A DNA stretch of 64,000 nt from Pseudomonadota bacterium (GTDB lineage: Bacteria > Pseudomonadota > Gammaproteobacteria > JAADHS01), in the NCBI GenBank assembly GCA_021821045.1, contig JAKACW010000007.1, positions 25,983 to 89,982 on the forward strand. The letters run 5' to 3'. This document shows positions 15,451 to 35,110 of the stretch, piece after piece (position 1 is the stretch's first letter; each line of letters starts with the position of its first letter). Under the pieces are notes generated by a model that made no database searches, was not told the DNA's origin, and worked only from the letters and a program-made list of their open reading frames with translations. Made by a program: the position numbers and the translations under genes.

Positions 15451-16656
15451 TCACCGCAATAGAACATCCAAAAGACTGCGCAATTCTTCGGCGACCTTCT
15501 CTTCATCCTTGGTGATCGTCGCATCACTTGCCATAGACGGTCGGTTTCCGTGGGCGAAGGCATTCCGAAATTTCGTCAAACGACCATACGCAGCACGCAG
15601 TGACTTTTCGCCCCGCTTGCCGTCATGGAATTCCGTTATTGCCTTGTCCCTGGTGGCATATTCGAACGCGCGTTCGTCGGCCCTTAACAGCGAGGTAATA
15701 AAAGCCTCCTGTGCAAATATGCACGCTCGCGGGTAGTCGCGCTGTTCAAGGAACAACCATGCCAACGATTTTTGATGAGCAACCAAATGGTTCGATTTTA
15801 CCCATGACATCCGCTCTTTTAATGCTGGCGCAAATAGCGCAGCCGTCGGTCCTAGATCACCGTCCAATACTGGCAAGAAGGTACCTAGACTCTGGCGCGC
15901 TTGGCTCACGTTGAAGGTACGTTCGTAGTATGCAGCTCTCTTGAGTGCCGCGAGTTTGTCGTCACCAATACCATCCTTCGCCAACAGCGGGACAAACACG
16001 CCGTAATCCGCGCTTTGATCGTACCGTGCAACGGCCTGCGCCCAATCCGCGAGATGCAGCAGACCACTCAGCTCATAAACCTGCGCCATGCCGGTGTCCG
16101 GATCGAAAAGACCGTAGTAAATGCCTTTAATCTGCGACTTGACGGCATCGCGCAGATAAAGGGCACTGATCAGGCCGAGCATGGGCAAGTGGCGAAAACC
16201 GTGGGTTACGTCCAATACAACCTCGTCATGTCGCGCCACGTGCGCAGCCAGCGCTCGAAGGATCTCGATCTGCTCGGCTTCGTCTTGACCGTATGGGATG
16301 AGATTGAGATGGATGGGTATGCCAACGCATTCTGACAGCAGCGGTTCCGCCCGCGCCAACAGGTCTGCAGACACCGCCTTGGCCTCCGTGGCCGCGATCA
16401 ATTCCAGCCGAAGGTCTTCGTCGCCGGTGTTTGCGGCCACAGTTTCCACGAGATGATCCCACATGCTGCCACTGGTACCGAGTATCACCAGTCTCTCGGG
16501 CTGGATCCGATTGCGCAGCGCCCAGCCAAAGAACGCTGTGGGTTCCGCCTCGACGCTGTCGGCGAAGCAGTAGCGTGTCTTGCGGTAACCATCGACACCT
16601 TTAGGAGAACGACCAAGAAAGCTGATCTGTACGCGTGCCAATGCTACTCCCTCCAA
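15451..16656 (-). CDS. csx1: Csx1 family CARF-HEPN ribonuclease (Cas_DxTHG)
   Basis: DVTHGFRH (DxTHG motif). C-terminal HEPN R-x4-H motif in KFRNAFAHG. 401 aa. Confidence 0.8.
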   Translation of the reverse strand: MEGVALARVQISFLGRSPKGVDGYRKTRYCFADSVEAEPTAFFGWALRNRIQPERLVILGTSGSMWDHLVETVAANTGDEDLRLELIAATEAKAVSADLLARAEPLLSECVGIPIHLNLIPYGQDEAEQIEILRALAAHVARHDEVVLDVTHGFRHLPMLGLISALYLRDAVKSQIKGIYYGLFDPDTGMAQVYELSGLLHLADWAQAVARYDQSADYGVFVPLLAKDGIGDDKLAALKRAAYYERTFNVSQARQSLGTFLPVLDGDLGPTAALFAPALKERMSWVKSNHLVAHQKSLAWLFLEQRDYPRACIFAQEAFITSLLRADERAFEYATRDKAITEFHDGKRGEKSLRAAYGRLTKFRNAFAHGNRPSMASDATITKDEEKVAEELRSLLDVLLR

Positions 16657-16665
16657 AGTGCTGTT

Positions 16666-17673
16666 TTAGTCCGCCGCGAGCTGAAAGTGACCCAACCCCA
16701 TGGTCGTTCCCTTGCCCGCATGGACCCACTGCCCAAGCCAGAGGTACGGCCAGAATGGCGCCAGATCGTCACCCTGGATAGTGAACGAGCCGACGATGCC
16801 GTCCATAGCGATCCTCTTGTTCTGTCGCGACGAGTAGCGGTTCCACCGGTGCCAATGAAGATCGCGATTGATGATCTCCACTTTGCGCGATGCCGCAACC
16901 AGGCCCGCAAAATCGGTGTCTAGTGGAGTGCCTGTGTGGAAGTATTGCAGCATGGAAATACGGCGAAGGAGATTGGTGAAGAGGTCGGAAAAGGTCAATT
17001 CTTCGGATCTAACGATCTTGTTGTGCCGGGCTAGACGCAACGGCTGTTCAATTATCACCGTCACATTTTCGCGTAGCGCTACCAGCGCCGGCCTAGTTGG
17101 TCGAAGCGGGCGCAACTGCCCATCGTCAAGAATCTCATGCCATGCGGGCGGCACGCCAGGATCAGCCTGGCATACGCTCGAAAGTATCAGCCTGCCGTCG
17201 CCTCGGCCGACGCCGCGTTGGGTCGCTAACGCAAGTGCCTGTACAAACAGGCCTAGGAAGCGATTGCCATGCCCGACGAGGATCAACTCGACCTCCACCT
17301 GCTCTCCGGCGCGCACGAGCGAACCACTTTTCCCGCTCGGCCTCAGCAGATACGGATGAGGCGCGTTGGTGTACAACCGCATTCTTTCCGTGTTCGGCGG
17401 CGGTGGACTCAGAAACAAATAGCCGTAGGCGCACGCCAGTTGCTGCGGGCAGCCCTCGCACTGGGAAAAGCCCGTGATGCAGCTCAGTTCCCGCAACGCG
17501 TGCCCCAGCACACCGCGCCAGGTCGAGCCGCTAAACTCGGGCAATCGCACGCTTTCGATCGCGGTAAACGTCAGCAAATATTGGCCCAGCGGCAACATCG
17601 GCTGCGTCATAGCCGCGGCCGCTCGTGCAGCATCGCTCCTGACAGTCTCGGATTCAGCGGAAGCTAGCATCAC
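16666..17673 (-). CDS. cas6: Cas6-like crRNA endoribonuclease (putative)
   Basis: Extreme C-terminal glycine-rich loop HAGKGTTMGLGHFQL. N-terminal ferredoxin-like segment (YLLTFTAIESVRLPEFSGSTWRGVLGHAL). Cys cluster CITGFSQCEGCPQQLAC. ATGA overlap with the upstream gene. Confidence 0.55.
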   Translation of the reverse strand: MMLASAESETVRSDAARAAAAMTQPMLPLGQYLLTFTAIESVRLPEFSGSTWRGVLGHALRELSCITGFSQCEGCPQQLACAYGYLFLSPPPPNTERMRLYTNAPHPYLLRPSGKSGSLVRAGEQVEVELILVGHGNRFLGLFVQALALATQRGVGRGDGRLILSSVCQADPGVPPAWHEILDDGQLRPLRPTRPALVALRENVTVIIEQPLRLARHNKIVRSEELTFSDLFTNLLRRISMLQYFHTGTPLDTDFAGLVAASRKVEIINRDLHWHRWNRYSSRQNKRIAMDGIVGSFTIQGDDLAPFWPYLWLGQWVHAGKGTTMGLGHFQLAAD

Positions 17674-20201
17674 CGACGCCCCCGCTGCATCCTGTTTGAA
17701 CCACGCCCCCGATCACCGTACCGTTCGTTTTGTGACTGTTCTTTCGTATCGTCAGTCGGCAGGTAGCCTAGTCCCCGATTGGCGCTATTCAGTTCCGGCA
17801 GCGACTGGAAGCGCTTGCTGCTCATCGGGTCATTGTTCTTTAATTTCTCGTTGTTTACGAACCACTCATAGATGGCTGTCGCATCCGTGCGTTGCGCATC
17901 AGGCCGGGGATAATGCACCGGCAAGCCTCCGCCCGGAGCCGCGTTGATCAAGGCCTTCACGAACGGCACACCATCGAATGAACGGCTGCCGTAAGCTCGA
18001 CACACCGCCTCCTTGAAGGCGCTCTCCAACCTCGCGATGGCGGCATCGTCGCACTGCGTGATCGCGCTGTCAGCCCCGCCGCTCAGATCACGGTAACGCT
18101 GCGCCAGCTGCTGCCCACTGCGCAACGCCACCCCCTGAAGCTCCAGCCTGACGGAGCCGAAACCCAGGGGCTTGCCTCCCCCGAGGCGATGACAATGATC
18201 CGCCGGCCAGCGCAGCAGCCACAGCAAGGCGCCGAGTTCCACCTCACTCAAGTTGGTCACGTCGATATCGAAAATGAACTCCGCGCCGGGCTTGATCCAG
18301 GATTTGGTGGAGCGGTTCTGATTGCTGCGGGGCTTGTCGCCGGCATAACGGTACTCCCGGTACAACGTCTGACCATCGTTCGCTCGGACGGCTTCCGTGC
18401 CCGAGCCGCGGGCGGACCAGTACCCCGGCGCGCCGACAGTCAAGGCGTGATGGGGATAGACCTTGCGACCGCGCAGGGTCTGCCCCTCTTCCTTGACATA
18501 AAATGCCTCGACCTTGGAAGTTCCGGCTCCCGCAGAGAGCTTTTGCACATTGCCGTTCTTCTCGCTGCCGATATAGAACCGCGCCTGCGCCGGCTTGGGT
18601 TGTCCGAGAATCGCCAACGCGAGGCCATTGTCGTCCTCGATGGGCTCGATCGCCGCCGGCCCCGTCGTACACACAACGGGGCCAACACTCAGTTGGCCGC
18701 GCCAGGCTTCCTTGCCATTGTGGTAGTTGCTGACCCAGCCGAACACCCGCTCCGCCGGCGACAGTTGCGATCGATCCTTCGCCGGCATCAGACTGGAATC
18801 GATCAGAACGTTAGGCGCATCGCGATAAAGACCACGAGAAATCGTCACTGGATACAGATCGACGACGCGCCAGCCCACGTCCTTTTCTTTTTCCACCTTC
18901 GCATAGCACAAGGTGCCGGGTTCCAGCTTCTTCTCGGACTCTGCGAACTGCCTGGGATTGACGTGCCGAGACCATTCACAAGAAGGGTTATTTAACGCAG
19001 ATGGACGGGTAATTCCCGCGGCAATTTCTTCCTTGTGGATCTCTTGGTAATTGCTTATCAGTGCCGTCCAGCGCTGTTTCACTTCAACTGGGATCTGCAC
19101 CGTCTCCGCCGCGCCATCCACGAAGAACAAGCGTTCATCATGCTTGTTATTCATGTTGCGATTTGAAACAAATACCCAGCCCTCCACCCACTGGCGCGGC
19201 GTCCCCGCGTCAGGCATTGACCCGCTTTTGACTTGAGTTGCGGACACCAAATCCGTGGGACGCGGCGCACTGTCGTACGGCCTCATTCGAACGACGCGCC
19301 AGAATTTGAAACGATTCGAGCGATGATTCCACAACTCGATCTCGGCCCAAACCCGTTGACCATGCCGCAACAACTCTCGACCGGAACGAAGAAAGTGTTG
19401 ATCACGGTAGGCAGGAATCCACGCCGCATAAAGCGGCCCTGCCGGAGCACCGCCCCCACCAATTCTGCTCGTCCCCGTGAGCAACTGGGCCGTCTTGCCA
19501 TCCTCACCAATCCGAACCGGCACCACGGCTCCTCCGTCATTCGACGGCAGCCGCAGCCCCAAGGGATTTTCGTGCTTATCCAACGCGCCAAAGCGGCTGT
19601 TGGTCGCCGCCTCGAACACCGAGCGCAGCATTCCCTTAACCGTCGTGGTGGGAATGAGCGGGGCGCCATGGGCGTCGCAGCGGGTTTCGAAAATCTTGTG
19701 GCCCTGCTGTGTCGTCGGGGCGCGCGAGGCATCGGGAATGAGCAGAGGGGTTGCCACCGTAATCTTGACGCTCAGCCGACCGCTCCAACGGTCCGCCAAG
19801 TAAGCGTGATGCCCGCAAGGCGCACTGTCGCCGAGATCGGCGTCATTGGTGTTGCGCCTGGGCGCCGGGATGAAGTTGTACGGATTTTCGAACTTTTCGG
19901 TGCCCGCACGCGCCGCTCCGGCCGGACCGGCTTGTTGTGCTTGTGACGATTGAGGGTGCGGCTCTCCGACTCTCCAAATCAGAGAAACCTGGCCTTTGGA
20001 ATTTTTTACGTACTGGACCTCGATACCAACGAGATCATCCATCTTGCCGGTCCAAATGCGCTTCAACTCAGGACTGAGCATTGTTTCGTTTATCACACAG
20101 AGCTGCTCGCCATTGTTTGTCTTCTGCATGATGAAGAACTGTTTCTTTCTTCCTTTATCAACAGTCCGCAGCTGTATCGTCGACCTCAACTCCTCGCTCA
20201 T
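17670..20201 (-). CDS. Large Cas7-family RAMP protein with ~500-aa insertion (all1473-like). Start taken at MSEELRS.
   Basis: ENPYNFIPAP, then TTVKGMLRSVFEAATNSRFG (Cas7 GSSxKG-like loop), then a distant C-terminal G-rich loop LGGGKPLGFGSVRLEL. ATGA overlap with the upstream gene stop at 20198-20201. Confidence 0.6.
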   Translation of the reverse strand: MSEELRSTIQLRTVDKGRKKQFFIMQKTNNGEQLCVINETMLSPELKRIWTGKMDDLVGIEVQYVKNSKGQVSLIWRVGEPHPQSSQAQQAGPAGAARAGTEKFENPYNFIPAPRRNTNDADLGDSAPCGHHAYLADRWSGRLSVKITVATPLLIPDASRAPTTQQGHKIFETRCDAHGAPLIPTTTVKGMLRSVFEAATNSRFGALDKHENPLGLRLPSNDGGAVVPVRIGEDGKTAQLLTGTSRIGGGGAPAGPLYAAWIPAYRDQHFLRSGRELLRHGQRVWAEIELWNHRSNRFKFWRVVRMRPYDSAPRPTDLVSATQVKSGSMPDAGTPRQWVEGWVFVSNRNMNNKHDERLFFVDGAAETVQIPVEVKQRWTALISNYQEIHKEEIAAGITRPSALNNPSCEWSRHVNPRQFAESEKKLEPGTLCYAKVEKEKDVGWRVVDLYPVTISRGLYRDAPNVLIDSSLMPAKDRSQLSPAERVFGWVSNYHNGKEAWRGQLSVGPVVCTTGPAAIEPIEDDNGLALAILGQPKPAQARFYIGSEKNGNVQKLSAGAGTSKVEAFYVKEEGQTLRGRKVYPHHALTVGAPGYWSARGSGTEAVRANDGQTLYREYRYAGDKPRSNQNRSTKSWIKPGAEFIFDIDVTNLSEVELGALLWLLRWPADHCHRLGGGKPLGFGSVRLELQGVALRSGQQLAQRYRDLSGGADSAITQCDDAAIARLESAFKEAVCRAYGSRSFDGVPFVKALINAAPGGGLPVHYPRPDAQRTDATAIYEWFVNNEKLKNNDPMSSKRFQSLPELNSANRGLGYLPTDDTKEQSQNERYGDRGRGSNRMQRGRR

Positions 20202-20791
20202 TGCCCCTCCCCCACCATTGCCAGCCCCGTCAAGCGCTCCGCCAGCACGGCGCAATTGCCATCTTTCCCAGCCTCGCCCGTTGCGCGGCCGAAATATTCG
20301 CGATAATGCAGCGCCGCCCGGCGCCCACCCGCGCGCTCGGTCAGCGGCACGATCAGTTCACCGATGGCGGCCGTCGACAACCGTGTCCAGGCGCCATCGA
20401 GATCGTCGGCCTCTGCCGTCTGGCCCCACAGGATGTATTGGCCATCCTTCATCCCCTTCAGCTTCCCGACTTCCTTGCGATCCCAACCCGGTATATCGCC
20501 ATCGCTCTCGGTCAGATAGCCGGCGCGGCCGCTCTGGTCGCGCTGCGGGATTCGCAACCAGCGCAGCTCCCCCTGCGCATCGAAGAAGCGCGCCTCATAA
20601 ACGGTGTCAAGATCGAGCACGCCGCTCGCGCTGCATACCGCCCCCGCCTCATAGCGGACGAAGCCGGTCGCATGCGCGGCATAGTAAAACCCCACCAGAG
20701 CGCGCTCGCCCGCGACCACGCGCACCGCGTCCTGCAACCCAACTTCATTGTTAGTGAAACATAACAATCGAATGGTATCGGCCTCGCTCAT
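20198..20791 (-). CDS. Hypothetical protein within the type III effector operon (about 198 aa from MSEADTIR)
   Basis: Positioned between two RAMP genes with tight spacing. No family recognised; Csx19 is possible but unverified. Confidence 0.4.
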   Translation of the reverse strand: MSEADTIRLLCFTNNEVGLQDAVRVVAGERALVGFYYAAHATGFVRYEAGAVCSASGVLDLDTVYEARFFDAQGELRWLRIPQRDQSGRAGYLTESDGDIPGWDRKEVGKLKGMKDGQYILWGQTAEADDLDGAWTRLSTAAIGELIVPLTERAGGRRAALHYREYFGRATGEAGKDGNCAVLAERLTGLAMVGEGQ

Positions 20792-22396: not shown

Positions 22397-24676
22397 TTAT
22401 TGGCGCTCGCGCGCGCGCAGCTCGCTGCGAATCGCAGCAATCCACAATGCGCGGAGCGCATCCCAGCGCAGCTCCGGGAAATCCTCCAGATCAGCCCCGC
22501 CCAGCAAGGCCCCGCCCGCCTTGTCGTTGATGAGCTTGAATGCCCTTGTTGGATCCTTTTCCAAGCAATCCCTTAACTCATCGCGCGTTCGATCGTTCCA
22601 GTTGTCGACACGGTTCTTCACTGCGCCCAGGTGCTGCAACCACTCGCGCGCGCGTTGGCGCGCGGCGTCGTCTTTTACCGCCACGACCACACTGCGCAAG
22701 GCACCGAGCTGACTGTTGGTCGGTTTGCCCGGCGCCAATCCAAGCGTGTCTTTTCTGAAAGAAGCGCTCCCGGCCAGCTCGACGGCATAACGCTCGATGT
22801 CGCGCCGGGAGGCTCTGAGCCGCAACCGTCGAATGAATGCCTGATCCTCCTTGCTAAGAGAATGCGCCGATCCTTCCTCGTCCCTGCGATCGAGCGACGC
22901 CCTCTTGCTTTTGAGTGTGTCCTCTTCCAGCACCGGCGCATTGAAACGCACCTCACCGTAGCCCTCGGCCACGCGCTCACCCAGACCGCGCATTTCCAGC
23001 GCCAGCGACTTCTGGCCATCGACATTCCCGTCCGCTTGAAAACGCACGACGGTCCCCGCTGCCAGGCCGACATACGAGGGCCGCGGCAAATTCCACGCAT
23101 GGCGCCACCCTTCACTGCGTCGCATTCGCGCAAATGAGTTTTCACTGGCTCGAAGGCCCACGCCCAACTCCTTTTCCAACTCGACGCGCAAGACCTCGGT
23201 GTCAGCGCAGGGCGCCAGCGTTGCATCACGCAGCAGCAGGTCCGAACACAGCCAGACGTCGAGATAGGCGCAGGGCGGCCGCGGCATCGGGTCGTCCTCA
23301 GCCTTGAAAGCAATGCGAACGCGACCGAAGTCATCCTTCTTCGCCTTACCCAAGCGATACTCACCAGCACCGTCGGCCAGCAACGCCCCTTCAAGCTTGT
23401 CTGCAACGGCCGCCGTCATCACGATTTCCGAGACATAACGCAATCCGGCTGGCAGCGCCTCGAAGGTATAGACTCCCCCCACTTCCGACGTCGGCCTCTG
23501 GGTCTCGTCCTCGATCGTGCCGTGAGTAAACGCTTCGACGGACGGCTTGAGGTGATAGAGCAGCTTCGCCTGATGATCGTAGGCCAGATAGCCCTCGCGC
23601 ATGGGTTTGCGCTGAATGCTATCCCCAGGCTCGCCCTCGAGAAAATTGCTGACATCCGCCCCGTTGCTTTTCTCCTTCGGCGTGTGGAAAGACAAGGGAA
23701 TCGGCAGCCCGCGTTGGTTATGGGTCAGAGGATAGGCATTCAGCACCCGCAGTTCACCGCGCGCCACGCAGCCGAAGTACGCTGACCCGACCGCTCGCGC
23801 CATGCGCTCATTCAATGCCGACAGCAGGAAGGTTCCCGGGATGTAATCCTGACTGGTGACCACGTTACCCATTACCGCCTGCGCAATCACCACCGGCGAC
23901 AGCAGATCGATCTCCACGCGCAGACGCTTCCACCCGCCATCTTCGGCGTGGCTCCCTCGCGGCGTGAAGCGCTTGGGCTCCGTCACTCTCTCAGTGACGA
24001 TTGCCGGGGGATCGCCAGCGAGAACCTTCAGCGCGTCCTCGGCCGCGATCAGGTCGCCCACACCAAAGTGGCAGCGCCCCAACCCACGGCGACGATTGGC
24101 CCCGAGGCGCTCGACGACTCGAGCCCCCGCCCACAACAACGCCAGCATGGCTTGCGTCTGTGCTTGGTCCTCGGGCAGGCTCACGACACAATCGGCCGAC
24201 AGGACACAACCCCCGATCGCCACCTCCTCCAGCCGCAGACAGTCCTCCTCCGCAACGCCGCGCGCATCCAGCTTCACGCCGGGCTTGATGAACGTCAGTC
24301 CTTGCCGCAGACCGCTCTCTTGCTCCAGCTCGGCCCGCACGGACTCCGACAAGCGCGCTTCGCGCACCGATAAGTGCGCGGCCAGCGGCGCACGTCGCCG
24401 CCGACTACCCTTGCCCGACTCATCGATCGCGCCAAATATCGCTCGCACGACATCGGCCCACGTGGCAGCCGCGCCACTCTCGCTATCCAGCCCCGCCGCA
24501 ATCTGCTCGCAGGCGTCACGCCAGATTCCGGTCAGCGTCTTGGCCGGAACATAAGGCAGATCATCCTGCGGATGACGGCGGATCAGACTATCGATGAAGC
24601 CGGGCGCGCCCGCGCCTTGGCTGACCTGCCAATCGCTATCGAAACGGACCTTGAGTGTGAATGCTTTGTTGATCAT
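22397..24676 (-). CDS. Multi-domain RAMP protein: Cas7-like plus a second RAMP (Cas5-like?) plus a C-terminal alpha-helical (Cas11-like?) domain
   Basis: Start FTLKVRFDSDWQVSQGAG...LPYVPAKTLTGIWRDA (Cas7-like). G-rich loops GANRRRGLGRCHFGV and RLGKAKKDDFGRVRI. Second RAMP core DYIPGTFLLSALNE. Helical Arg/Glu-rich tail. 759 aa. Confidence 0.6.
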   Translation of the reverse strand: MINKAFTLKVRFDSDWQVSQGAGAPGFIDSLIRRHPQDDLPYVPAKTLTGIWRDACEQIAAGLDSESGAAATWADVVRAIFGAIDESGKGSRRRRAPLAAHLSVREARLSESVRAELEQESGLRQGLTFIKPGVKLDARGVAEEDCLRLEEVAIGGCVLSADCVVSLPEDQAQTQAMLALLWAGARVVERLGANRRRGLGRCHFGVGDLIAAEDALKVLAGDPPAIVTERVTEPKRFTPRGSHAEDGGWKRLRVEIDLLSPVVIAQAVMGNVVTSQDYIPGTFLLSALNERMARAVGSAYFGCVARGELRVLNAYPLTHNQRGLPIPLSFHTPKEKSNGADVSNFLEGEPGDSIQRKPMREGYLAYDHQAKLLYHLKPSVEAFTHGTIEDETQRPTSEVGGVYTFEALPAGLRYVSEIVMTAAVADKLEGALLADGAGEYRLGKAKKDDFGRVRIAFKAEDDPMPRPPCAYLDVWLCSDLLLRDATLAPCADTEVLRVELEKELGVGLRASENSFARMRRSEGWRHAWNLPRPSYVGLAAGTVVRFQADGNVDGQKSLALEMRGLGERVAEGYGEVRFNAPVLEEDTLKSKRASLDRRDEEGSAHSLSKEDQAFIRRLRLRASRRDIERYAVELAGSASFRKDTLGLAPGKPTNSQLGALRSVVVAVKDDAARQRAREWLQHLGAVKNRVDNWNDRTRDELRDCLEKDPTRAFKLINDKAGGALLGGADLEDFPELRWDALRALWIAAIRSELRARERQ

Positions 24677-25044
24677 GCTGATTTCCCTTCTGCACGCTCA
24701 ACCGTGTTTTCAGGCACGAAGAACGGAATCGAGACCAACGCATCAAGGAACCGTGTCACTCTGGTCGGCGGCTCGCCCTGCGCCGGCCCATCATCGAAGA
24801 ACAGCCCGCCCTTGCCAAACACTGCGTCAAGCTCCTTATAACGATGCCGAAGCAAGTCGAGCCTCGCCTCAGCGGTCGCGCCGCTGCGCATCAACTCAAA
24901 GCGCAACCCGTGGAGCTGACTTGCTGGAACATTGCTGCGACCGCTGTCCCTATCACGAGCCAGCATGGCCGCAGCCATGCGGCGCAGATCGCCCAGACGG
25001 TGCTGGGCTACCCATCGCGCCGAGTCCTCGCGCATGCCCGCCAA
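24673..25044 (-). CDS. Small alpha-helical protein; candidate Cas11 (small subunit)
   Basis: 123 aa between the Cas10-like gene and the RAMP genes. ATGA overlap with the downstream gene. Call is by position and size only. Confidence 0.3.
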   Translation of the reverse strand: MAGMREDSARWVAQHRLGDLRRMAAAMLARDRDSGRSNVPASQLHGLRFELMRSGATAEARLDLLRHRYKELDAVFGKGGLFFDDGPAQGEPPTRVTRFLDALVSIPFFVPENTVERAEGKSA

Positions 25045-25086
25045 TCTTTCGGCCGGCGTTACGACATAAGGTCCTGCAAAAAGTCT

Positions 25087-26409
25087 CTACGTGATCGCCT
25101 GACCACCGGCATCGCACTGCTGTTCAAGCTGCGAGCGCAGGTCATCGAGCCCAGTGAATGAAGCGTCGAATAACACATGGAAGTCCAGTGACGAACATGG
25201 ATATGGTCTGTCGTCTCCGTCTGCGGTTCGGACCCGCTGCTTAACCGGATCCTTGGCCTGCTTGATCAATTCGGAAGCCAATTCATAAGCGCTGAAGAAC
25301 GGAAACTGCGGCTTGACGATCGCCACGCCGGCGCCCGCGCCGAGATAAGACACGCCGAATGCCCGCTTGGCGATCTCGGAACTGGTCGGTCCCTGTGCGA
25401 TAGCATCTTCGAAAGCGGCCAGATACGTTTCGGTGAACTCCAGCGCGTAAACGCCGTCGATCAGCACCGTGAGATCATCACCGCCCACCACCAGGGGAAC
25501 GACCGGCAAAATGCTCTTGGACTTTCGCCGCCGACGTGGATGGGGCCGCTTCGCCAGAAGCTTACAGGCCTCCGTGAAAGCCTGCTCAGCGGCCGCATCG
25601 ATGTCCAGCGAAAATTCGCGGAAGGTTTGAAGGTAGGCGGATTTGTCATCGCCGCAATACTTCTCGAAGTTCAAGATGATCTGTCCGAACCCGCTCCCGT
25701 CGGCATGCACCACGGCCAGCCAGTCAGCACCCAAATCATCGATCTGATCGGCCAGCTCCAATTCTCTGCTGGATTCGTCGACCGACCGGATCATCCTGAG
25801 GGCGCGATCACGCCACTTCTTTCGAACTTCCTGATCCGACTTCGACACACACATCTGCGAAGTCGTCTCGCCACCGTCAGGACGATTCGCCGCGCCACCG
25901 GAGTGGGCGCAGGGCGCAACGAAAGGCAAACGGGCGAAGCGTGCCAGCGGCTGCGGCCGCGTCGAGCGAATCTGGTTGAACCGCTGATGAAGCTGCACCA
26001 TCACCTGCGGCAGCTTAAGCGGGTCATCGAATTCTTGAATCGCACCGCACACATCCAGGCCCGGCGCCTCTTGCAACGCCCGCAACGTCACGGCCTCGAT
26101 GACGTTCTCTGCCTTATCCTTTGCATCAGTCACAAACAAGGCCTTGCCGGATACCGCGGTGACGACTTCAAAGCCACCCTGGGCACCCGGCTGGCGCAGC
26201 GGCGTGCGCTGCTGACGCAATTTCTCTCGCATCCGTTGGGGGTCGTCGCTCCAGAAACTGGCCCCCCCATTCTCCGCGATGGCTTCCAGCACCCATTGCG
26301 TTCCGGCTCGGTAGATCAGCTCCGAGGCACCCACGTTTTCCCGCAGTTTGTTGGTCGCGAAAACGTAGCTTTGATTACCCGAAGTTTCGATCAGAACAAG
26401 AAACGGCAT
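25087..26409 (-). CDS. cas10: Compact Cas10-like Palm/cyclase protein lacking an HD domain (GGDD motif)
   Basis: Palm strand LAVVHADGSGFGQI and catalytic VVGGDDLTVLIDG. Possible degenerate N-terminal palm FLVLIETSGNQSYVF. No HD motif. Only 440 aa. Confidence 0.6.
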   Translation of the reverse strand: MPFLVLIETSGNQSYVFATNKLRENVGASELIYRAGTQWVLEAIAENGGASFWSDDPQRMREKLRQQRTPLRQPGAQGGFEVVTAVSGKALFVTDAKDKAENVIEAVTLRALQEAPGLDVCGAIQEFDDPLKLPQVMVQLHQRFNQIRSTRPQPLARFARLPFVAPCAHSGGAANRPDGGETTSQMCVSKSDQEVRKKWRDRALRMIRSVDESSRELELADQIDDLGADWLAVVHADGSGFGQIILNFEKYCGDDKSAYLQTFREFSLDIDAAAEQAFTEACKLLAKRPHPRRRRKSKSILPVVPLVVGGDDLTVLIDGVYALEFTETYLAAFEDAIAQGPTSSEIAKRAFGVSYLGAGAGVAIVKPQFPFFSAYELASELIKQAKDPVKQRVRTADGDDRPYPCSSLDFHVLFDASFTGLDDLRSQLEQQCDAGGQAIT

Positions 26410-26557: not shown

Positions 26558-27409
26558 CTAATCCCGCTGGGGGCTTCCCTTTCCGCGACATACCGTTTCC
26601 CCCAAGAACACCACGCCCTCGTAGACTTCGCATACTCGCGTTTTGCGCGCATTCAATTGCAGCCCGAGCCGCCGCAACGCCTTCTCCGCCAACGCGTGGG
26701 CCGTTCGGGAAGAGTCCACGTCTGGCGTCATCAACAAAAAATCATCCGCATAGCGCACAAACGTAATGTTCGCTCGCGCCATTGCGCGATCAAATGCATG
26801 TAAGTAAAGGTTGCACAGAAACGGCGAAATCACGGCCCCTTGCAGCAAACCGCGCCTACCCTGAAGCAGGCCCGAGGTATGAGGCCCTACGTCCAACCAG
26901 GCCTTTACCAAGTTTAAGAGCCAACGATCGCCGAAAGTTCGCTTTACCATGCGCAAGAGAGGGCCATGCGGCACCCGATCGAAGAACTTTTCGATATCGG
27001 CGTCCACCACCCAACGCAACCCCGTATGCACCCGTTCCCGGACTTTCCGCAACGCATGAGGCACACCCCGACCGGGCCGATAGCCGAAGCTGTCGTGATG
27101 GAAGAACGCTTCCGCTCGCGGCTCCAGCACTTGCAGAATCAATCGCTGGGCAAATTTGTCGCGCCGATATTGGGCCGACAGCACGCGCCGTCCCCCATCG
27201 CCCTTTTTCACGGCCCATTGGCGGATCGGCAGCGGCCGATACCGGCCCTCGCGCAACTCTTCGACAATCGTCAACAGATGAAACGGCGAATTCTTCTGCA
27301 AATCTTGCTCCTCGGTACCGGGTGCCCAAGGCGCCGCATCATTGCGCAGCACGCGCCACGCTTGCTTCACATTCGCCGCACAAAGCGCCGTGGTCATGAT
27401 ATCGCCCAT
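26558..27409 (-). CDS. Reverse transcriptase (group II intron-like RT domain, no maturase or endonuclease)
   Basis: RT motifs FGYRPGRGVPHA, WVVDADIEKFFDRV, AVISPFLCNLYLH, YADDFLL, LQLNARKTRV. Second Met at 27397 forms an ATGA overlap with the cas1 stop. Confidence 0.85.
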   Translation of the reverse strand: MGDIMTTALCAANVKQAWRVLRNDAAPWAPGTEEQDLQKNSPFHLLTIVEELREGRYRPLPIRQWAVKKGDGGRRVLSAQYRRDKFAQRLILQVLEPRAEAFFHHDSFGYRPGRGVPHALRKVRERVHTGLRWVVDADIEKFFDRVPHGPLLRMVKRTFGDRWLLNLVKAWLDVGPHTSGLLQGRRGLLQGAVISPFLCNLYLHAFDRAMARANITFVRYADDFLLMTPDVDSSRTAHALAEKALRRLGLQLNARKTRVCEVYEGVVFLGETVCRGKGSPQRD

Positions 27410-28413
27410 GGGTTTTCTTCCTCGCTTCGGCCGAGGACTTTCTGAAAATCGTTGACCACGCCCCTCGCTGCCGTGTCGATGGATTGCTCCTCGGCAACCT
27501 GATCGTCTGCGGTCTCGCCCGGCTGCTCAGCTTGGCGCGCACGCGCCGGCCACTGATCGCACCACAGTCGCCACGCACCATAAAAGCGTGAGCGTGCTTC
27601 CTTCGATAAACGGCAGCCTTCGTGGTCGCTCAGTGTGAAATCCGCCGGTGTTACTTGGCCATCTAACAACCGCAGCACGAAAAGATCCACGCCTGGACGC
27701 AACGCCTCCATCAAGTCGAGCGACAATCCCGGCCGTGCCGGCGCCACTTCATGCAAAAACCCGAGATAGGGATCAAACCCCGCGGCGCACGCTTGGCGAT
27801 GCACCACTCCCAGAGCAAGCGTATAGCCCAACGACAGCATCGCATTCACCGGATCGCGCGGGGGTCGCCGATTGCGCGATTCGAACATCCAATGGGGCGC
27901 CATTTGCGATCGCAGCCAGGCATACCACGCTTTCGCGGCCCGCCCTTCGACGCCCATCAACGCCGCATTGTCCCGAGCCAAAGCCGTATCTTGTTGGCAT
28001 TGGGTCAGAATCGCGCTGCACTCCTGGCCGATTCCCAATCGCTGCAATAGATCACAACCGGCCGCCAACTTCTCCCGCACCATCCAACGTGCCAGAACAA
28101 GACGCCGCCCAAGTTCCTGATATGCGCGGTACTGCCGGGCCCGCCAGTGCACGAAAGAACTCAGGCCACTTCCCAGCCAACACACCTCCCCCTTGCCCCG
28201 CGCCGGCATCAGCGCCACGGGTACGGCACTGTCCGCCAACGCGCGCCATACATCGCAGCGAACCGACGGACTACCGTACACCACCACCGATCCGAGCACC
28301 GCAAGTGGCACCCGTTTAAACGCACCATCGGCGTAATCGATGCGCAAAGCCTTGTTCTCGACGCTGACACTCAGATCGCGCCTGTCGAGTATCAGCGTCA
28401 ACCCGCCGCTCAT
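27394..28413 (-). CDS. cas1: CRISPR-associated endonuclease Cas1
   Basis: Start MSGGLTLILDRRDLSVSVENKALRI. Conserved RRPPRDPVNAMLSLGYTLAL Cas1 motif. The track ORF extends further upstream to 28530. Confidence 0.85.
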   Translation of the reverse strand: MSGGLTLILDRRDLSVSVENKALRIDYADGAFKRVPLAVLGSVVVYGSPSVRCDVWRALADSAVPVALMPARGKGEVCWLGSGLSSFVHWRARQYRAYQELGRRLVLARWMVREKLAAGCDLLQRLGIGQECSAILTQCQQDTALARDNAALMGVEGRAAKAWYAWLRSQMAPHWMFESRNRRPPRDPVNAMLSLGYTLALGVVHRQACAAGFDPYLGFLHEVAPARPGLSLDLMEALRPGVDLFVLRLLDGQVTPADFTLSDHEGCRLSKEARSRFYGAWRLWCDQWPARARQAEQPGETADDQVAEEQSIDTAARGVVNDFQKVLGRSEEENPWAIS

Positions 28414-28760
28414 GCCGCCCTCCCGAAACCGGCCAGCAACCGGGCCAGTAACGACGCCCTTTCGGGTTCCGCGGTCGCCGCCACTTCCGCCACAGGCTGC
28501 CCGGGGCTTGCCATGGCATCGTTCAGCCACAAGCCCGCCGGATGCGGAACGGGATACGCACGCAAGTCGTCTTCAGCAAGATCCATCAGCCCGCTGACTT
28601 CATCGAGAACCTGGGTCAGCCCGTTGCGGTTCGCGCACACCAGGAACACCGATTCCTGTAAAGCCATGCCACGGCGCGAAATGCAGCGATGCACCCGTTG
28701 CAACCGACGCGAGTCGCAAATGTCATAGGACACCAAATGCCAGCGCTTCGAAAAGTCCAT
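28410..28760 (-). CDS. cas2: CRISPR-associated endoribonuclease Cas2 (paralogue a)
   Basis: WHLVSYDICDSRRLQRVHRCISRRGMALQESVFLVC...EDDLRAYPV fits the Cas2 fold signature. Stop overlaps the cas1 start. Confidence 0.7.
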   Translation of the reverse strand: MDFSKRWHLVSYDICDSRRLQRVHRCISRRGMALQESVFLVCANRNGLTQVLDEVSGLMDLAEDDLRAYPVPHPAGLWLNDAMASPGQPVAEVAATAEPERASLLARLLAGFGRAA

Positions 28761-28777
28761 GTTTGATCTCCTTTTCT

Positions 28778-29062
28778 TTAAGCCACGTGCAGCCAGCGGC
28801 GGAACAGACTGTCCTGGTCACCCACGCCCCGTCCGTTGACTTCCGCATTGGGCGACAACCAAGCCAGCATCAACTTGTCCCCTTGCGGATCGATCAGCTC
28901 CAGGAGCTGTACGTACAACTCCTCGGCCTCCTTGTGGTTGAGTAAGCACTCGTGCACGGACTTCTGCCCGTCGATGCGCCACTGCTGAAGGCGTTTATGA
29001 ACACGCCGACGGCGAACGGGGTTGCCGATGTCGTACGCGATGATGGCGGGTTTGCGTTTCAT
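28778..29062 (-). CDS. cas2: CRISPR-associated endoribonuclease Cas2 (paralogue b)
   Basis: MKRKPAIIAYDIGNPVRRRRVHKRLQQWRIDGQKSVHECLL...GDKLMLAWL (Cas2-like). Start chosen at MKRKP. Confidence 0.65.
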   Translation of the reverse strand: MKRKPAIIAYDIGNPVRRRRVHKRLQQWRIDGQKSVHECLLNHKEAEELYVQLLELIDPQGDKLMLAWLSPNAEVNGRGVGDQDSLFRRWLHVA

Positions 29063-29393: not shown

Positions 29394-31506
29394 GTTCAAA
29401 CGTGTCCCTGACGAAGAAGGGATTGAGACTTTTTTGCTTGAGCAACGCCTTGCGGGTCGGCGTTCAAACGTGTCCCTGACGAAGAAGGGATTGAGACCTC
29501 ACGGTTTTCGAGTTCATACCGGGAGACGAAGTTCAAACGTGTCCCTGACGAAGAAGGGATTGAGACCTCTGAGCGCGTCCTGTTGGCAAGGTTGCTGGCG
29601 TTCAAACGTGTCCCTGACGAAGAAGGGATTGAGACAGGACGTGGTCGTCTGCGCGGCAAGCGCGCAGGGTTCAAACGTGTCCCTGACGAAGAAGGGATTG
29701 AGACCAAAACGCCTCGTCCCCAAGCAACACAAAGTGGTTCAAACGTGTCCCTGACGAAGAAGGGATTGAGACCCCGGCATTTGCTACCTTGCGGCAGCGC
29801 CTGTTGTTCAAACGTGTCCCTGACGAAGAAGGGATTGAGACCCAGCGCGGCTTGCGCGATGGAAATCTCGCTTGGTTCAAACGTGTCCCTGACGAAGAAG
29901 GGATTGAGACAGGCAGTTGTTGTCACATCAGCCACCCGACAAAGGTTCAAACGTGTCCCTGACGAAGAAGGGATTGAGACGAAAAACGCAGCCCCAACCA
30001 GTCTCCGGCATTTGTTCAAACGTGTCCCTGACGAAGAAGGGATTGAGACGCCCGCGTCGGCCCTCACTCCGGTTAACGGCCGGTTCAAACGTGTCCCTGA
30101 CGAAGAAGGGATTGAGACCAGGGCGGCCTCACGCCCTCTTGTGTCTTCGAGGTTCAAACGTGTCCCTGACGAAGAAGGGATTGAGACGCGTAGCGTCGAG
30201 AGGTCGCGCTTGATCTGTCGGTTCAAACGTGTCCCTGACGAAGAAGGGATTGAGACTATTTTCGCTTGCGCGAGAGCGTTGCCGCTCTGTGTTCAAACGT
30301 GTCCCTGACGAAGAAGGGATTGAGACTAGGGTGTTCGGCGTCGCAAATGTGGACTGGGTGTTCAAACGTGTCCCTGACGAAGAAGGGATTGAGACCGCGA
30401 ATGCAGCGCGAGGGTCAATGTAAGTTGGTTCAAACGTGTCCCTGACGAAGAAGGGATTGAGACTTGATCTCAGAACATGAGGTCGCTGCGGCGTTAGGTT
30501 CAAACGTGTCCCTGACGAAGAAGGGATTGAGACCAGGGCCAATTCACCATCAAAGATGGCTTGAGCGTTCAAACGTGTCCCTGACGAAGAAGGGATTGAG
30601 ACGGAGGGTTCATGCATCGGTGGATCTCCTTTGAAGTTCAAACGTGTCCCTGACGAAGAAGGGATTGAGACGAAGAGGACGAGGCCGGGGGCATCGCAGG
30701 CATTCGTTCAAACGTGTCCCTGACGAAGAAGGGATTGAGACAGCTTCCATCGTTTTATGGAAGCGGCGGATCTAGGTTCAAACGTGTCCCTGACGAAGAA
30801 GGGATTGAGACTTCGAGTACAAAACGGTATGTGGTGTTTTCCAGGTTCAAACGTGTCCCTGACGAAGAAGGGATTGAGACTCGAAGATCCACTCTTTATT
30901 CCTCTTGATAGAGTTCAAACGTGTCCCTGACGAAGAAGGGATTGAGACCCTTCCCCGCCGCCCTGTCCTTCGCCCGACTCTGTTCAAACGTGTCCCTGAC
31001 GAAGAAGGGATTGAGACGTTCACTGGGGGCTAGCCCAGTGAGCCAGTGCGGTTCAAACGTGTCCCTGACGAAGAAGGGATTGAGACATACGAAACGGAGA
31101 CGCCATCGCTGGCTCGAGGGGTTCAAACGTGTCCCTGACGAAGAAGGGATTGAGACGCCAACATACCGCACCGCATCCAGGAACCCTAGAGTTCAAACGT
31201 GTCCCTGACGAAGAAGGGATTGAGACTTGTCCTTCTCGAGCTGCAGCAGGACGCAGTTGGGTTCAAACGTGTCCCTGACGAAGAAGGGATTGAGACACTT
31301 CGGCTTCGGCCTCGAAGGGTGTCTCCGAGGGTTCAAACGTGTCCCTGACGAAGAAGGGATTGAGACTCACAAACAAGGTCGTAGAACGCAGTTTTGCGGG
31401 TTCAAACGTGTCCCTGACGAAGAAGGGATTGAGACTGGTCCGTCGGGACTCCGCAACGATCTCAAAGATGTTCAAACGTGTCCCTGAAAAAAAGGCGACA
31501 AACATT
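29394..31506 (+). CRISPR. CRISPR array: 31 direct repeats (30 intact of 36 bp plus 1 degenerate terminal) and 30 spacers of 32-35 bp
   Basis: Repeat GTTCAAACGTGTCCCTGACGAAGAAGGGATTGAGAC at 29394, 29462, 29531, 29600 ... 31400. Terminal degenerate copy at 31471 (GTTCAAACGTGTCCCTGAaaaaaaggcgacaaacat). AT-rich leader 29331-29393 on the cas2 side. Repeat 3' end ATTGAGAC resembles the type III 8-nt crRNA tag. Confidence 0.97.
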
Positions 31507-31897: not shown

Positions 31898-32178
31898 ACG
31901 GCTATGACATCATCGGCGACATACACGGCCACGGCGCCGAGGACCAGCGCGGGGTGCTTGCCATCGTGCGGCCTGTGGTGAATTGTGGAAGCGCGCTTGC
32001 GGTGATGGGAAATCACGAATTCAATGCCGTGTGTTTTCACACTCGCCATCCCGAATCCGGCCGCCCTCTGCGCGACCATACGCCAAAGAACCTGACGCAG
32101 CATCAAAGCTTCTTACAACAGTTTCCTCATCCCGCTCGGGATTTATACCCAGAACTTTTCGGACATCCGCCAGGGTGA
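31894..32178 (+). pseudogene. Truncated calcineurin-like metallophosphoesterase (ApaH/PrpE-like) N-terminal fragment
   Basis: MNGYDIIGDIHGHG...VMGNHEFN has GDxHG and GNHE motifs. It lacks the GDxxDRG motif and stops after ~95 aa, where full-length enzymes are about 220-250 aa. Confidence 0.45.
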
Positions 32179-33703
32179 CGCGCCCCGCGCCGACATTGCC
32201 TTCGCCATCCCTTGCTTGCCGCAACATGACTGCCCGCGCGAGGGCTTCACTCAGTTTGCGCATGTCGCGCGCGTTTCCCGACCTTGGGTCGCGCCTGTTG
32301 TAAAGGCTCTGAATATGTCGTTCGAGCGGTGCCCGCCCGCTCTTCTGCAGCGCAATCCCCTCCGCGTCAAGGTCCGCCTCGAGAATAGCCATTAACTGCG
32401 CCGGTGCGTAATCGGAAAACGCCTCGTGTTCAGTGAATCGCGATCTCAGGCCGGGATTGGCTTCGACGAACTTCGCCATGTTCTCCGTGTAACCCGCGGC
32501 CACCACCACGAACTGGCCGCGGCAGTCCTCCATTTTTTTGAGCAGCGTCTCAATTGCCTCGGGCCCAAAGTCCCATGGGGCATCCTTCACCAAGGCGTAG
32601 GCTTCGTCGATAAATAGCACTCCGCCCATGGCGCGCTCGATGGCATCGGCGGTATTCAATGCCGTTTGCCCCACGAAGCCTGCAACAAGCTTGCTGCGAT
32701 CGACTTCGTGAAGATGACCGCGCTCGAGCAGACCGAGCGCGCCGTAGATATTCGCCAGAATCCGCGCGACCGTGGTCTTGCCCGTACCGGGATTCCCGGA
32801 GAAAACCCAATGGTGAACCAGCCTTTTCAAGTAATCCGGATTGTGGCGACGCGCATAACGAACCAGTTCGATGGTCTCATGGATCTTCTGCTTGAACGAA
32901 TCCAGGCCCACCATTGCATTCAATTCGTCCATAGCCTCTTTTAGTCGGGGCTCGTCGATGGGCGCCTGCCAGTATTTGGGCTCGTGCTCGTCACGGACAG
33001 CGATGATGTCCTGCGCTACGATTTGGGATAGTTGCGTGACGCGCTCTCGTTCGGGCAAGTCCATGCATCGAGTGCTGTGCATTATGATCGCCCTTTCGAT
33101 CAACAGCCGGGCATAACGACCGTTAGCGTGGAGGCGGTCTCGCGCGCGATACGCGTCGTTGAAGTTCTGCTCGAGCTCGGAAACGGCGCCATCGCTCAAT
33201 ACAAAATCCTGTTGGGCAGCAATCGCTCGCGCGATCTTCACCATATCCTCGGGCGTGTAATCGTCGAACGTCATGTCAAACCCAAAACGCCCCTTCAAGC
33301 CCGGATTCGATTCCAGGAACGCATTCATTTCGGCAGTGTAGCCCGCGCAAATCACTACCAATCGATCACGGCGGTTTTCCATTTCCTGAACCAGTACGTC
33401 AACCACCTGCTTGCCGTAGTCGACGCCGTTGTTGGAGTTCAGCGCATAGGCTTCGTCAATAAATAGCACGCCGTCCATTGCCTGCTCGATAGCGGACTTG
33501 ATCTTTTCCTCTGTGCCGCCGACGTTCACGCTCACCAGTTCGGCGCGGCCGACTTCCACGACATGACCCCGCTTGAGCAGGCCCAGATCACGCAAAATGG
33601 GACCGACCAGCCGAGCGACCGTGGTCTTTCCCGTACCGGGGTTGCCTTTGAACACGCAGTGTAGATTGAGCGAGGTCTCCCTCAGGTTGCGCCGCTTGCG
33701 CAT
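32021..33703 (-). CDS. Tandem AAA+ ATPase (two CbbX/SpoVK-family modules). As sequenced it is separated by a frameshift from its N-terminal membrane domain.
   Basis: Two copies of GNPGTGKTTVAR (Walker A), GVLFIDEAYAL (Walker B), CAGY/AAGYT and NPGLKGRF/NPGLRSRF modules. 560 aa. Confidence 0.8.
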   Translation of the reverse strand: MRKRRNLRETSLNLHCVFKGNPGTGKTTVARLVGPILRDLGLLKRGHVVEVGRAELVSVNVGGTEEKIKSAIEQAMDGVLFIDEAYALNSNNGVDYGKQVVDVLVQEMENRRDRLVVICAGYTAEMNAFLESNPGLKGRFGFDMTFDDYTPEDMVKIARAIAAQQDFVLSDGAVSELEQNFNDAYRARDRLHANGRYARLLIERAIIMHSTRCMDLPERERVTQLSQIVAQDIIAVRDEHEPKYWQAPIDEPRLKEAMDELNAMVGLDSFKQKIHETIELVRYARRHNPDYLKRLVHHWVFSGNPGTGKTTVARILANIYGALGLLERGHLHEVDRSKLVAGFVGQTALNTADAIERAMGGVLFIDEAYALVKDAPWDFGPEAIETLLKKMEDCRGQFVVVAAGYTENMAKFVEANPGLRSRFTEHEAFSDYAPAQLMAILEADLDAEGIALQKSGRAPLERHIQSLYNRRDPRSGNARDMRKLSEALARAVMLRQARDGEGNVGAGRVTLADVRKVLGINPERDEETVVRSFDAASGSLAYGRAEGGRIRDGECENTRH

Positions 33704-34366
33704 GTCGGCAACACGAGCACGATTGTATAGGTTGTTTTGACGGACTCTATTCCGATGAGCGCCTCCAGCCGCGCCATTGCTTCCTTGCCGTCCATGGTCG
33801 GCGTGTTTGGCACGGGTTCGGCTTTGGCGGCAGAGGCCGGCTGTTCGACCGGCATTGGCTGCGAACGCATCTCAGCCTGCGGCAAATAGGTGCGACGGGC
33901 GGCTTGAAAGGCCATCCGCTCGCGCTCATTCTTGATGTGCCTCCACGAGATCCACCCGATAATGAGCGCAATAAGAACGGTCTCCGTGTTGGCGAAGAAC
34001 ATCACGATAGAGAAGACCAGAGCCGCCCAAGCAACCCAATAGCTCAAGCCGGGCGAGAAGGCCGGATCGCTCCGGCGAAGCAAACGCACCATCCCCGCGA
34101 GTTTCTCAAGCATCAGCAGAACCAGCCAACCCACGGCCCACACCAAGCCGACGCGCAAACCCAGCAAGTAACTCACCGTTAACTCCATACCCGCCGCGGC
34201 CCGTACACGCTCTTGTAGAACAGCCGGATCGGGAACAAGGTAAAGCAAGGCGAACGTTCCCAGCACGAAGGCTGCAAGATTCCTCCCGACGAAGTCGAGA
34301 ACGGCTTTTACGCGAGGCGTTGACACGTAAGGATTCTCCTTTGCTGGGTGACCGAGTGAAGGGCGC
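33682..34366 (-). CDS. N-terminal membrane segment (about 4 TM helices) of the same AAA+ protein, out of frame with it
   Basis: Translation MRPSLGHPAKENPYVSTPRVKAVLDFVGRNLAAFVLGTFALLYLV... ends ...EAMARLEALIGIESVK. This aligns with EAMDELNAMVGLDSFKQK preceding the second AAA module. Frame restores with +1 A in the A4 run of gtcAAAAcaacc (by codon walk, about 33700-33715). Confidence 0.5.
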
Positions 34367-34396
34367 ATTACATCACGGCCGGGGCGACTCGCTGCG

Positions 34397-34412
34397 ATTC
34401 GAAAGCTTGTGA
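34397..34412. promoter_or_regulatory. TTCGAAAGCTTGTGAA palindrome-like motif. With CAAGCTTG copies at 34476-34483 and 34519-34526 it lies in the divergent promoter region between the membrane-AAA+ gene and csx16.
   Basis: Seen directly. Confidence 0.3.
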
Positions 34413-34590
34413 ACCGCGATCCCGTGAAGCCTTCACGACTATTAAAGCCGACACAACCGCCACCGCGGGGATTAACAAGCTTGCATGACGCCCGCCAGGA
34501 ATCGCTCGGGGCGATCGGCAAGCTTGTGGAGGGTCAATGATTCTCCAGAAAATCCCATAATGGTTTCTCAACACGTGCCAGGGAGGAACC

Positions 34591-34965
34591 ATGACTGTAT
34601 TTTTCGTATCCAGACATAAGGGTGCCGTGGGGTGGTCGGCGCAACACGGGCTACGCGTCGACACGCTAGTGGACCATTTGGATCCGCAGGAAGTCCATGA
34701 GGGCGATACGGTGATCGGTTCGTTGCCATTGCATCTGATCGCGAAGGTCTGCGAGCGCGGCGCCCGCTTCCTTCATTTGGCCATCGACATTCCCGCTCAG
34801 TGGCGCGGGCAAGAACTCACGGCGGAGCAGCTTAGTCAGGCGGACGCGCGGCTGGAGGAATATGTGGTACGCAGAATCGGAAAGAATCGCGGTAGGAAAC
34901 CGCTCCCACAACGAACTGAGCTTCCCTTGTGGGAGCGGATCATTCCGCGATTGAATCGGCAGTAG
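34591..34965 (+). CDS. csx16: Csx16-like (Cas_VVA1548 family-like) small CRISPR-associated protein; candidate ring nuclease
   Basis: N-terminus MTVFFVSRHKGAVGWSAQHGLRVDTLVDHLD resembles the FxSRHxGAxxW start I recall for Csx16. The last ~28 codons are supplied by REP repeat sequence starting at 34878. Confidence 0.45.
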   Translation: MTVFFVSRHKGAVGWSAQHGLRVDTLVDHLDPQEVHEGDTVIGSLPLHLIAKVCERGARFLHLAIDIPAQWRGQELTAEQLSQADARLEEYVVRRIGKNRGRKPLPQRTELPLWERIIPRLNRQ

Positions 34966-35110
34966 CGCCAAGTCAGGAGAGAATCGCGGTAGGAAACCGC
35001 TCCCACAACCAACTGGGCTCCCCCCGTGGGAGCGGATCATTCCGCGATTGAATCGGCAGTAGCGCCAAGTCAGGAGAGAATCGCGGTAGGAAACCGCTCC
35101 CACGACATTG
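34878..35110. repeat. Cluster of REP-like elements including a tandem duplication of a ~95-bp composite unit
   Basis: gaatcgcggtaggaaaccgctcccacaa...gtgggagcggatcattccgcgattgaatcggcagtagcgccaagtcaggagagaatcgcggtaggaaaccgctcccacaaccaactgggctccccccgtgggagcgg... repeated twice. Confidence 0.85.

Follow-up and report, generated by a model that had tools for sequence, protein, structure and literature searches.

The window, by which we mean the whole 64,000-nucleotide stretch of DNA that was analysed, contains a complete type III-Dv CRISPR-Cas locus. Its genes and features, with the profile matches and the matches to chains of PDB entry 8S9T on which they were assigned, are:

14064–15299, minus strand: second CARF protein, NE0113/CARF5 family (TIGR02584 1.1e-62; PADLOC CARF5 2e-94)
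15451–16656, minus strand: csx1, CARF-HEPN effector RNase of the TM1812 family with a DxTHG motif (TIGR02221 8e-50; PADLOC CARF2 CARF_HEPN 1.2e-129)
16666–17673, minus strand: cas6 (PF10040 1.4e-16)
17670–20201, minus strand: cas7-insertion, TIGR03986 RAMP, 843 aa (8s9t_E E=5e-156; TIGR03986 2.7e-91)
20198–20791, minus strand: csx19, 197 aa (8s9t_B E=3.6e-15; PF27799 on the identical gene of contig L004)
20793–22376, minus strand: cas7-2x, double Cas7 fusion, 527 aa as in related contigs (8s9t_D E=1.6e-82)
22397–24676, minus strand: cas7-cas5-cas11 fusion, 759 aa (8s9t_A E=4e-99; RAMP and Csx10 profile matches)
24673–25086, minus strand: remainder of cas10, codons 442–578 in the same frame, with GPYVV and the helical D4 (Cas11-like) domain
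25087–25089, minus strand: premature amber codon TAG in place of Tyr441 (TAC elsewhere); the variable base is 25087
25090–26409, minus strand: cas10 (type III-Dv), codons 1–440 (PF22335 7.5e-7; 8s9t_C 19–444 E=2e-81; PADLOC Cas10 5e-107), consisting of Palm1 (~1–150, SGK hairpin, non-catalytic), a loop (159–187), a helical linker and Palm2 (~231–412)
25474–25485, minus strand: GGDD of Palm2, within cas10
25690–25707, minus strand: HADGSG of Palm2, within cas10
26558–27409, minus strand: stand-alone group-II-intron-like reverse transcriptase (RT) (RVT_1 6.8e-34; CRISPR-associated RT model 9e-88)
27394–28413, minus strand: cas1, 339 aa as in related contigs (PF01867 6.6e-61)
28410–29062, minus strand: two cas2 genes, 28410–28760 and 28778–29062 (PF09827)
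29394–31435, plus strand: CRISPR array of 30 identical 36-nt repeats (GTTCAAACGTGTCCCTGACGAAGAAGGGATTGAGAC) with spacers of 32–34 nt

All five chains of 8S9T have an orthologue in the window and the gene order is conserved. The fused Cas7-Cas5-Cas11, Cas7-2x and Cas7-insertion proteins are encoded together with Csx19 in one operon, the arrangement by which type III-Dv is recognised. Relatives are widespread, at 302 loci of species-representative genomes with best identities of 36–44%; the hosts include cyanobacteria, Proteobacteria (Beggiatoa-like ones and others), Acidobacteriota, Planctomycetota and further groups. The sequence search of solved structures gave no matches for Csx1 and the CARF5 protein, whose identities were taken from NCBIfam and PADLOC profiles; the NCBIfam label of the second CARF protein is Csm6-type ring nuclease.

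Several observations were made on the surrounding genes. The ORF of Cas7-insertion extends from 17670 to 20255 and encodes 861 aa from a TTG start, compared to 843 aa in related contigs. Its first ~115 residues lie outside the match to 8s9t_E (query 118–819) and the match to TIGR03986 (125–770); the N-terminal 112 residues of the Synechocystis protein form an uncharacterised domain which is invisible in the map (PMC11026444). The adaptation module has the order cas2-cas2-cas1-RT, the two cas2 products differ in size (94 and 116 aa), and the RT (283 aa) has an ORF of its own, which lies downstream of cas1 and shares 16 nt with it, the usual arrangement being an N-terminal RT-Cas1 fusion. The strand of the array was set solely by its likeness to the Synechocystis III-Dv repeat printed in PMC11026444. 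When the spacers, trimmed by 5 nt, were searched against the 64-kb window for self-targets that could account for an inactivation, none was found at ≤5 mismatches. In the Logan contig L003 the array (2900–3020) is collapsed: what is left of it is one spacer (ATCTTTGAGATCGTTGCGGAGTCCCGACGGACCA), one perfect repeat and a degenerate terminal one. Beyond the array, the intergenic region between an AAA ATPase region and der/engA has a tandem repeat at 34879–35103 (2.3 copies of a 97-nt unit, 95% identity); its unit holds an inverted-repeat-like segment, GGAAACCGCTCCCAC ... GTGGGAGCGG.

The cas10 gene appears in the open reading frame list of the window as a minus-strand ORF running from 26409 to 25087 (ATG to TAG, 440 codons). 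A preliminary description of this DNA, made from the letters and the ORFs, had taken it for a complete miniature Cas10 of 440 aa with a GGDD cyclase palm and without an HD domain, one of the smallest orthologues. The motifs on which that description was based are indeed present: VVHADGSGFG occupies residues 233–242 and VVGGDDLTVLIDG residues 307–319, and the second palm of Cas10/Cmr2 (PF22335) was found at residues 231–389 with a score above the gathering score. The catalytic residues of the palm are kept on alignment, with the GGDD at 309–312 being invariant among 24 Cas10 homologues. The suspected degenerate N-terminal palm was also confirmed; it carries SGK at the hairpin where GGDD would sit and stands beside the one catalytic palm.

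The N-terminus of the protein is complete, since an AGGAGG ribosome-binding site is located just 5' of the ATG at 26409, in-frame stops follow further upstream and the start position is common to 23 of the 23 aligned homologues within a few residues. Only 148 bp separate cas10 from the upstream RT gene (26558–27409), and the earlier statement that there is no room for a missing N-terminus held. Like the homologues in the alignment, the protein opens straight at Palm1 (MPFLVLIETSGNQ). The dipeptide HD is absent not just from the 440-aa part but from the whole 578-aa read-through described below, in agreement with the HD-less nature proposed before. An HD domain or other N-terminal part encoded upstream was therefore excluded by the ribosome-binding site, the in-frame stops and the shared start.

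The C-terminus gave a different picture. The TAG at 25089–25087 is the sole stop between the 440-codon ORF and a 123-codon ORF (24673–25044); a frameshift between the two was considered and rejected, as they share one frame and are separated by a single TAG. Reading through the TAG adds 137 further codons, to 24673, and gives a product of 578 aa. The downstream ORF matches residues 470–570 of 8s9t_C, the C-terminal domain, with E=4e-5, and the 440-aa part matches residues 19–444 of the same chain, which the depositors named Cas10 (575 residues). A further Cas10 portion encoded nearby, which the preliminary description had named as a finding that would refute it, was thus found: residues 442–578, in the same frame after the TAG.

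A search of a large protein collection with the 578-aa read-through returned 767 relatives. Among the ~120 best of these, the window's own allele excluded, lengths range from 457 to 668 aa and nearly all cover 89–100% of the query; the exceptions with low coverage are one partial record of 457 aa and one protein of 659 aa. The only complete 440-aa entry among the best 120 is the window's own allele. In the 24-member alignment, invariant columns continue after the stop (P447, Y448, W466, H500, R503, F537, T552, L555, D556 and A557). The claim that 440 aa is the natural length, and with it the claim of an exceptionally small orthologue, therefore has to be given up: the stop is a single TAG, its same-frame continuation encodes the D4 domain, an intact 578-aa allele exists elsewhere, and 578 aa is typical of the family. 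We are highly confident that the gene is that of an ordinary HD-less type III-Dv Cas10 with 578 residues, and that the "440-residue mini-Cas10" amounts to its first three quarters. The gene calls of 440 and 120 aa in public records should be taken as one interrupted cas10. It is true that the annotated ORF of 440 aa holds both palm domains and that some PADLOC Cas10 profiles span just the palm part, as would be expected of a naturally miniature, palm-only Cas10; but with the rest of the protein in frame after the TAG, an intact allele elsewhere and a family that mostly measures ~530–670 aa with a conserved C-terminal domain, such an enzyme is very improbable.

Even less credible is read-through or recoding of the TAG, by a suppressor tRNA or as pyrrolysine, to give the full-length protein. 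A single in-frame TAG followed by an intact coding sequence is what recoding would look like, but of 38 other long ORFs inspected 10 likewise end in TAG, such as those for Der/EngA, BamB and ribonucleotide reductase, and the other alleles simply carry Tyr. No pyrrolysine machinery came to notice in the window. Since TAG is thus an ordinary terminator in the ORFs of the window, recoding is not a sensible explanation.

The full-length 578-aa allele was modelled with AlphaFold2 from a 24-sequence alignment (mean pLDDT 82.7, pTM 0.87). The model has beta-alpha-beta-beta-alpha-beta units at 3–126 and 231–365. The first is the ferredoxin-like first palm with strands at 3–9, 80–86, 89–94 and 120–126 and the invariant SGK at the hairpin; it is followed by a low-confidence loop (159–187) and a helical linker. 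The second palm, comprising 231–365 and following residues, carries HADGSG and GGDD, and after it come a beta-hairpin (429–442) and a helical C-terminal domain (453–563). The top Foldseek matches were 8s9t_C, 8s9x_C, 8s9v_C and 8s9u_C, all over the full length (E down to 1.5e-40, TM 0.75–0.85), with 8s9t_C as the best (TM 0.79–0.85), whereas Csm1 and Cmr2 structures gave TM values of 0.35–0.48 and E values from 1e-10 (best, 8bmw_K) to ~1e-6. D311 and D312 of the GGDD align with D308 and D309 of Synechocystis Cas10, and H500 and R503 with H487 and R490, which belong to cleavage site 3; the numbering of the PDB chain is offset by 17 residues, presumably because of an N-terminal tag. The intact 578-aa protein is orthologous to the type III-Dv Cas10 from Synechocystis.

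Of the features that characterise the Cas10 superfamily, the two palms with GGDD in the second one were found, and so was the C-terminal helical D4, although the TAG separates it from the rest. The N-terminal HD nuclease, which many but not all members have, was not found. Its absence is a known property of III-D Cas10 proteins (PMC11026444) and, therefore, membership still stands. A stand-alone single-palm mCpol was rejected on domain content and context: the protein has two palms and a D4 and is encoded by the first gene of a type III effector operon.

According to the model, codon 441 falls within the predicted beta-hairpin between Palm2 and D4. This bears on the idea that Cas10 works here in two pieces, a 440-aa palm core and a re-initiated D4/Cas11-like piece of ~120 aa that acts in trans. 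The C-terminal ORF is intact, in frame and begins 51 nt past the stop, and D4 is small-subunit-like in the 8S9T structure; if true, the arrangement would be a natural snapshot of a Cas11-like small subunit budding from the Cas10 C-terminus. However, neither of the possible restart codons (ATG 25035, TTG 25044) is preceded by a Shine-Dalgarno sequence close enough to be used, residues 441–459 with the invariant P447 and Y448 would be lost, the break lies inside the hairpin, and among the 120 best of the 767 relatives no complete protein is of similar length, a partial record of 457 aa being the one further short sequence. Moreover, the split is due to one SNV, the background being otherwise identical, and nothing therefore indicates its upkeep by selection. 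We regard a two-piece Cas10 as improbable, and this small probability also covers a more modest version, in which the TAG and a 10-bp frameshift in a neighbouring ATPase gene (see below) would record that a wild population was selected to silence a toxic signalling system. An interrupted gene for an ordinary 578-residue Cas10 explains the locus far better.

The next question was whether the interruption is real. A cluster mate of the 440-aa protein (P0121, 90%-identity cluster) has 578 aa and equals the read-through with Tyr441. Two Logan contigs, L004 with 9094 nt and L005 with 7097 nt, differ from the window in a single base, window position 25087, which changes codon 441 from TAC in L004 and L005 to TAG in the window, a C to G exchange on the coding strand. 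The cas10 frame is uninterrupted in L003, L004, L005 and L092. In an allele survey made via the neighbouring Cas7-Cas5-Cas11 gene, TAC was found in four Logan runs (SRR33230236, SRR33230247, SRR33230277 and SRR33230278) and TAG in ENA ERZ27237524 (122-kb contig) and NCBI GCA_027343985.1 (8.3-kb contig). The four TAC-bearing metagenome assemblies are from the same strain as the window. Residue 441 is a variable column of the family alignment and, therefore, conservation is silent on which base is ancestral; the ancestral base was judged from the intact downstream domain and the other alleles.

That only one base separates the window from four assemblies with TAC, and that the domain downstream is perfectly intact, could mean that the TAG is an error of assembly or sequencing, possibly in the consensus, and that the sampled organism has an intact 578-aa Cas10. 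Substitution errors are rare in short-read consensus sequences, and the TAG is present in two differently assembled records, the 8.3-kb NCBI and the 122-kb ENA contig, although both might come from the same reads. A further contig, Logan SRR13304626 contig 35965, begins 2 nt past the variable base. A break at this site is expected where an assembly graph branches at a true polymorphism, and suggests that both alleles co-occur in SRR13304626.

A second disruptive difference was found on the contig of the window. Compared to the otherwise identical Logan contig L003, 10 bp (ATTCGCCAGC) are missing from the window at 33729/33730, 8.6 kb from the TAG. The deletion frameshifts a 771-aa double-AAA+ ATPase gene just beyond the CRISPR array, which is encoded at 80–2395 in L003 and split into the minus-strand ORFs 32021–33703 and 33682–34521 in the window; the protein has AAA and AAA_lid_6 domains and weak IetA/TRIP13-like PADLOC matches. 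Over ~11.7 kb, the TAG and this deletion are the sole differences from L003, and both break a gene. Because of the two differently assembled records, the contig break and this second disruptive difference, a real variant is favoured: we consider it likely, though well short of certain, that the TAG is a real nonsense allele, and leave a minor but real chance to an error. Thus, the truncated cas10 allele is probably a real loss-of-function polymorphism. Two gene-breaking differences suggest that inactivation was selected for, though a pair of events is not enough for proof. Together, the nonsense codon in cas10 and the frameshift in the ATPase gene are a small natural example of how a type III signalling locus may have been inactivated.

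What the intact and the truncated protein may do can be judged from the Synechocystis III-Dv complex. Its Cas10 has a large N-terminal truncation, and most III-D Cas10s are without an HD domain (Schwartz et al. 2024, PMC11026444). The complex keeps the GGDD; cognate but not non-cognate target RNA leads to synthesis of cyclic oligoadenylate (cOA) by Cas10 and thereby to an active Csx1 RNase, and mutation of catalytic palm residues abolishes the cOA-dependent activation of Csx1 (PMC11026444). A D308A/D309A mutant of Cas10 appears in the plasmid methods of that study. The C-terminus of the Synechocystis protein is helical and follows the Cas7 filament in the manner of a small subunit, with H487 and R490 contributing to target-RNA cleavage site 3 (PMC11026444).

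By homology, the 578-aa Cas10 and Csx19 would both sit at the base of a filament of Cas7-Cas5-Cas11, Cas7-2x and Cas7-insertion to which the crRNA is bound. Upon binding of a non-self target RNA, the palm pair would make cyclic oligoadenylate from ATP, and this messenger would activate Csx1, the CARF-HEPN RNase whose gene lies in cis. The C-terminal domain would lie along the Cas7 backbone and give its His/Arg pair to one of three target-RNA cleavage sites. The intact protein should therefore be a target-RNA-gated cOA synthase that feeds Csx1, without a DNase arm. A signalling-centred immunity had been put forward before, and it agrees with the locus, whose accessory genes encode CARF proteins in cis, the CARF-HEPN protein Csx1 and the CARF5 protein. 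As the identity to the Synechocystis protein is only ~35–43%, the ring size of the messenger, and whether it is cOA or another nucleotide conjugate, can only be predicted. cOA is likelier than SAM-AMP because the accessory genes encode CARF proteins, the palm has GGDD and there was no CorA among the ORFs scanned; on the same grounds, SAM-AMP signalling as in III-D2 was considered less likely. In the window allele, the single C to G exchange that turns the TAC of Tyr441 into TAG would lead to a truncation product of 440 aa. This product would most likely be null or severely impaired, since the GPYVV motif, the His/Arg pair and D4 are lost.

Compared to canonical Cas10 (Csm1 of III-A, Cmr2 of III-B), the protein likewise has two palms, GGDD in the second one and a C-terminal helical D4, but it has no N-terminal HD nuclease and is ~200–400 residues shorter. 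The type III-D2 Cas10, a SAM-AMP/SAM-AMP2 synthase (Mitsuda et al. 2026, PMC13294483), is compact as well; its system is derived from III-D, has fused Cas7 subunits and centres its immunity on signalling. III-D2 systems make SAM-AMP and use CorA effectors (PMC13294483), whereas the window has Cas7-2x, Cas7-5-11, Csx19 and Cas7-insertion together with CARF effectors and a GGDD motif, and its ORFs that were scanned included no CorA.

The closest known system is that of Synechocystis sp. PCC 6803 (8S9T, 8S9U, 8S9V and 8S9X, chain C). Both Cas10 proteins are HD-less with the same domain order and share ETSGNQ, HADGxG, GGDD and the C-terminal His/Arg pair, and both loci have the operon order cas10, cas7-5-11, cas7-2x, csx19, cas7-insertion, with Csx1 and a Csm6-like CARF protein as accessory genes. 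Unlike in Synechocystis, the host is represented by a proteobacterial, Chromatiales-like MAG and not a cyanobacterium, the adaptation module has a stand-alone RT and two cas2 genes, and cas10 has a premature stop at codon 441; the identity of the Cas10 proteins is just ~35–43%. A hint at the taxonomy came from an RND permease, which has a cluster mate (≥90%) under the name Chromatiales bacterium. A compact, HD-less, GGDD-active Cas10 with signalling-only immunity is already known for type III-Dv (PMC11026444), where it has been described structurally and biochemically, so that the gene adds little as a discovery: rather than a new miniature enzyme, it encodes a member of a family that has been characterised before. 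As a whole, the proteobacterial III-Dv locus is well preserved; its adaptation module contains an RT, and every subunit of the solved complex has an orthologue in it.
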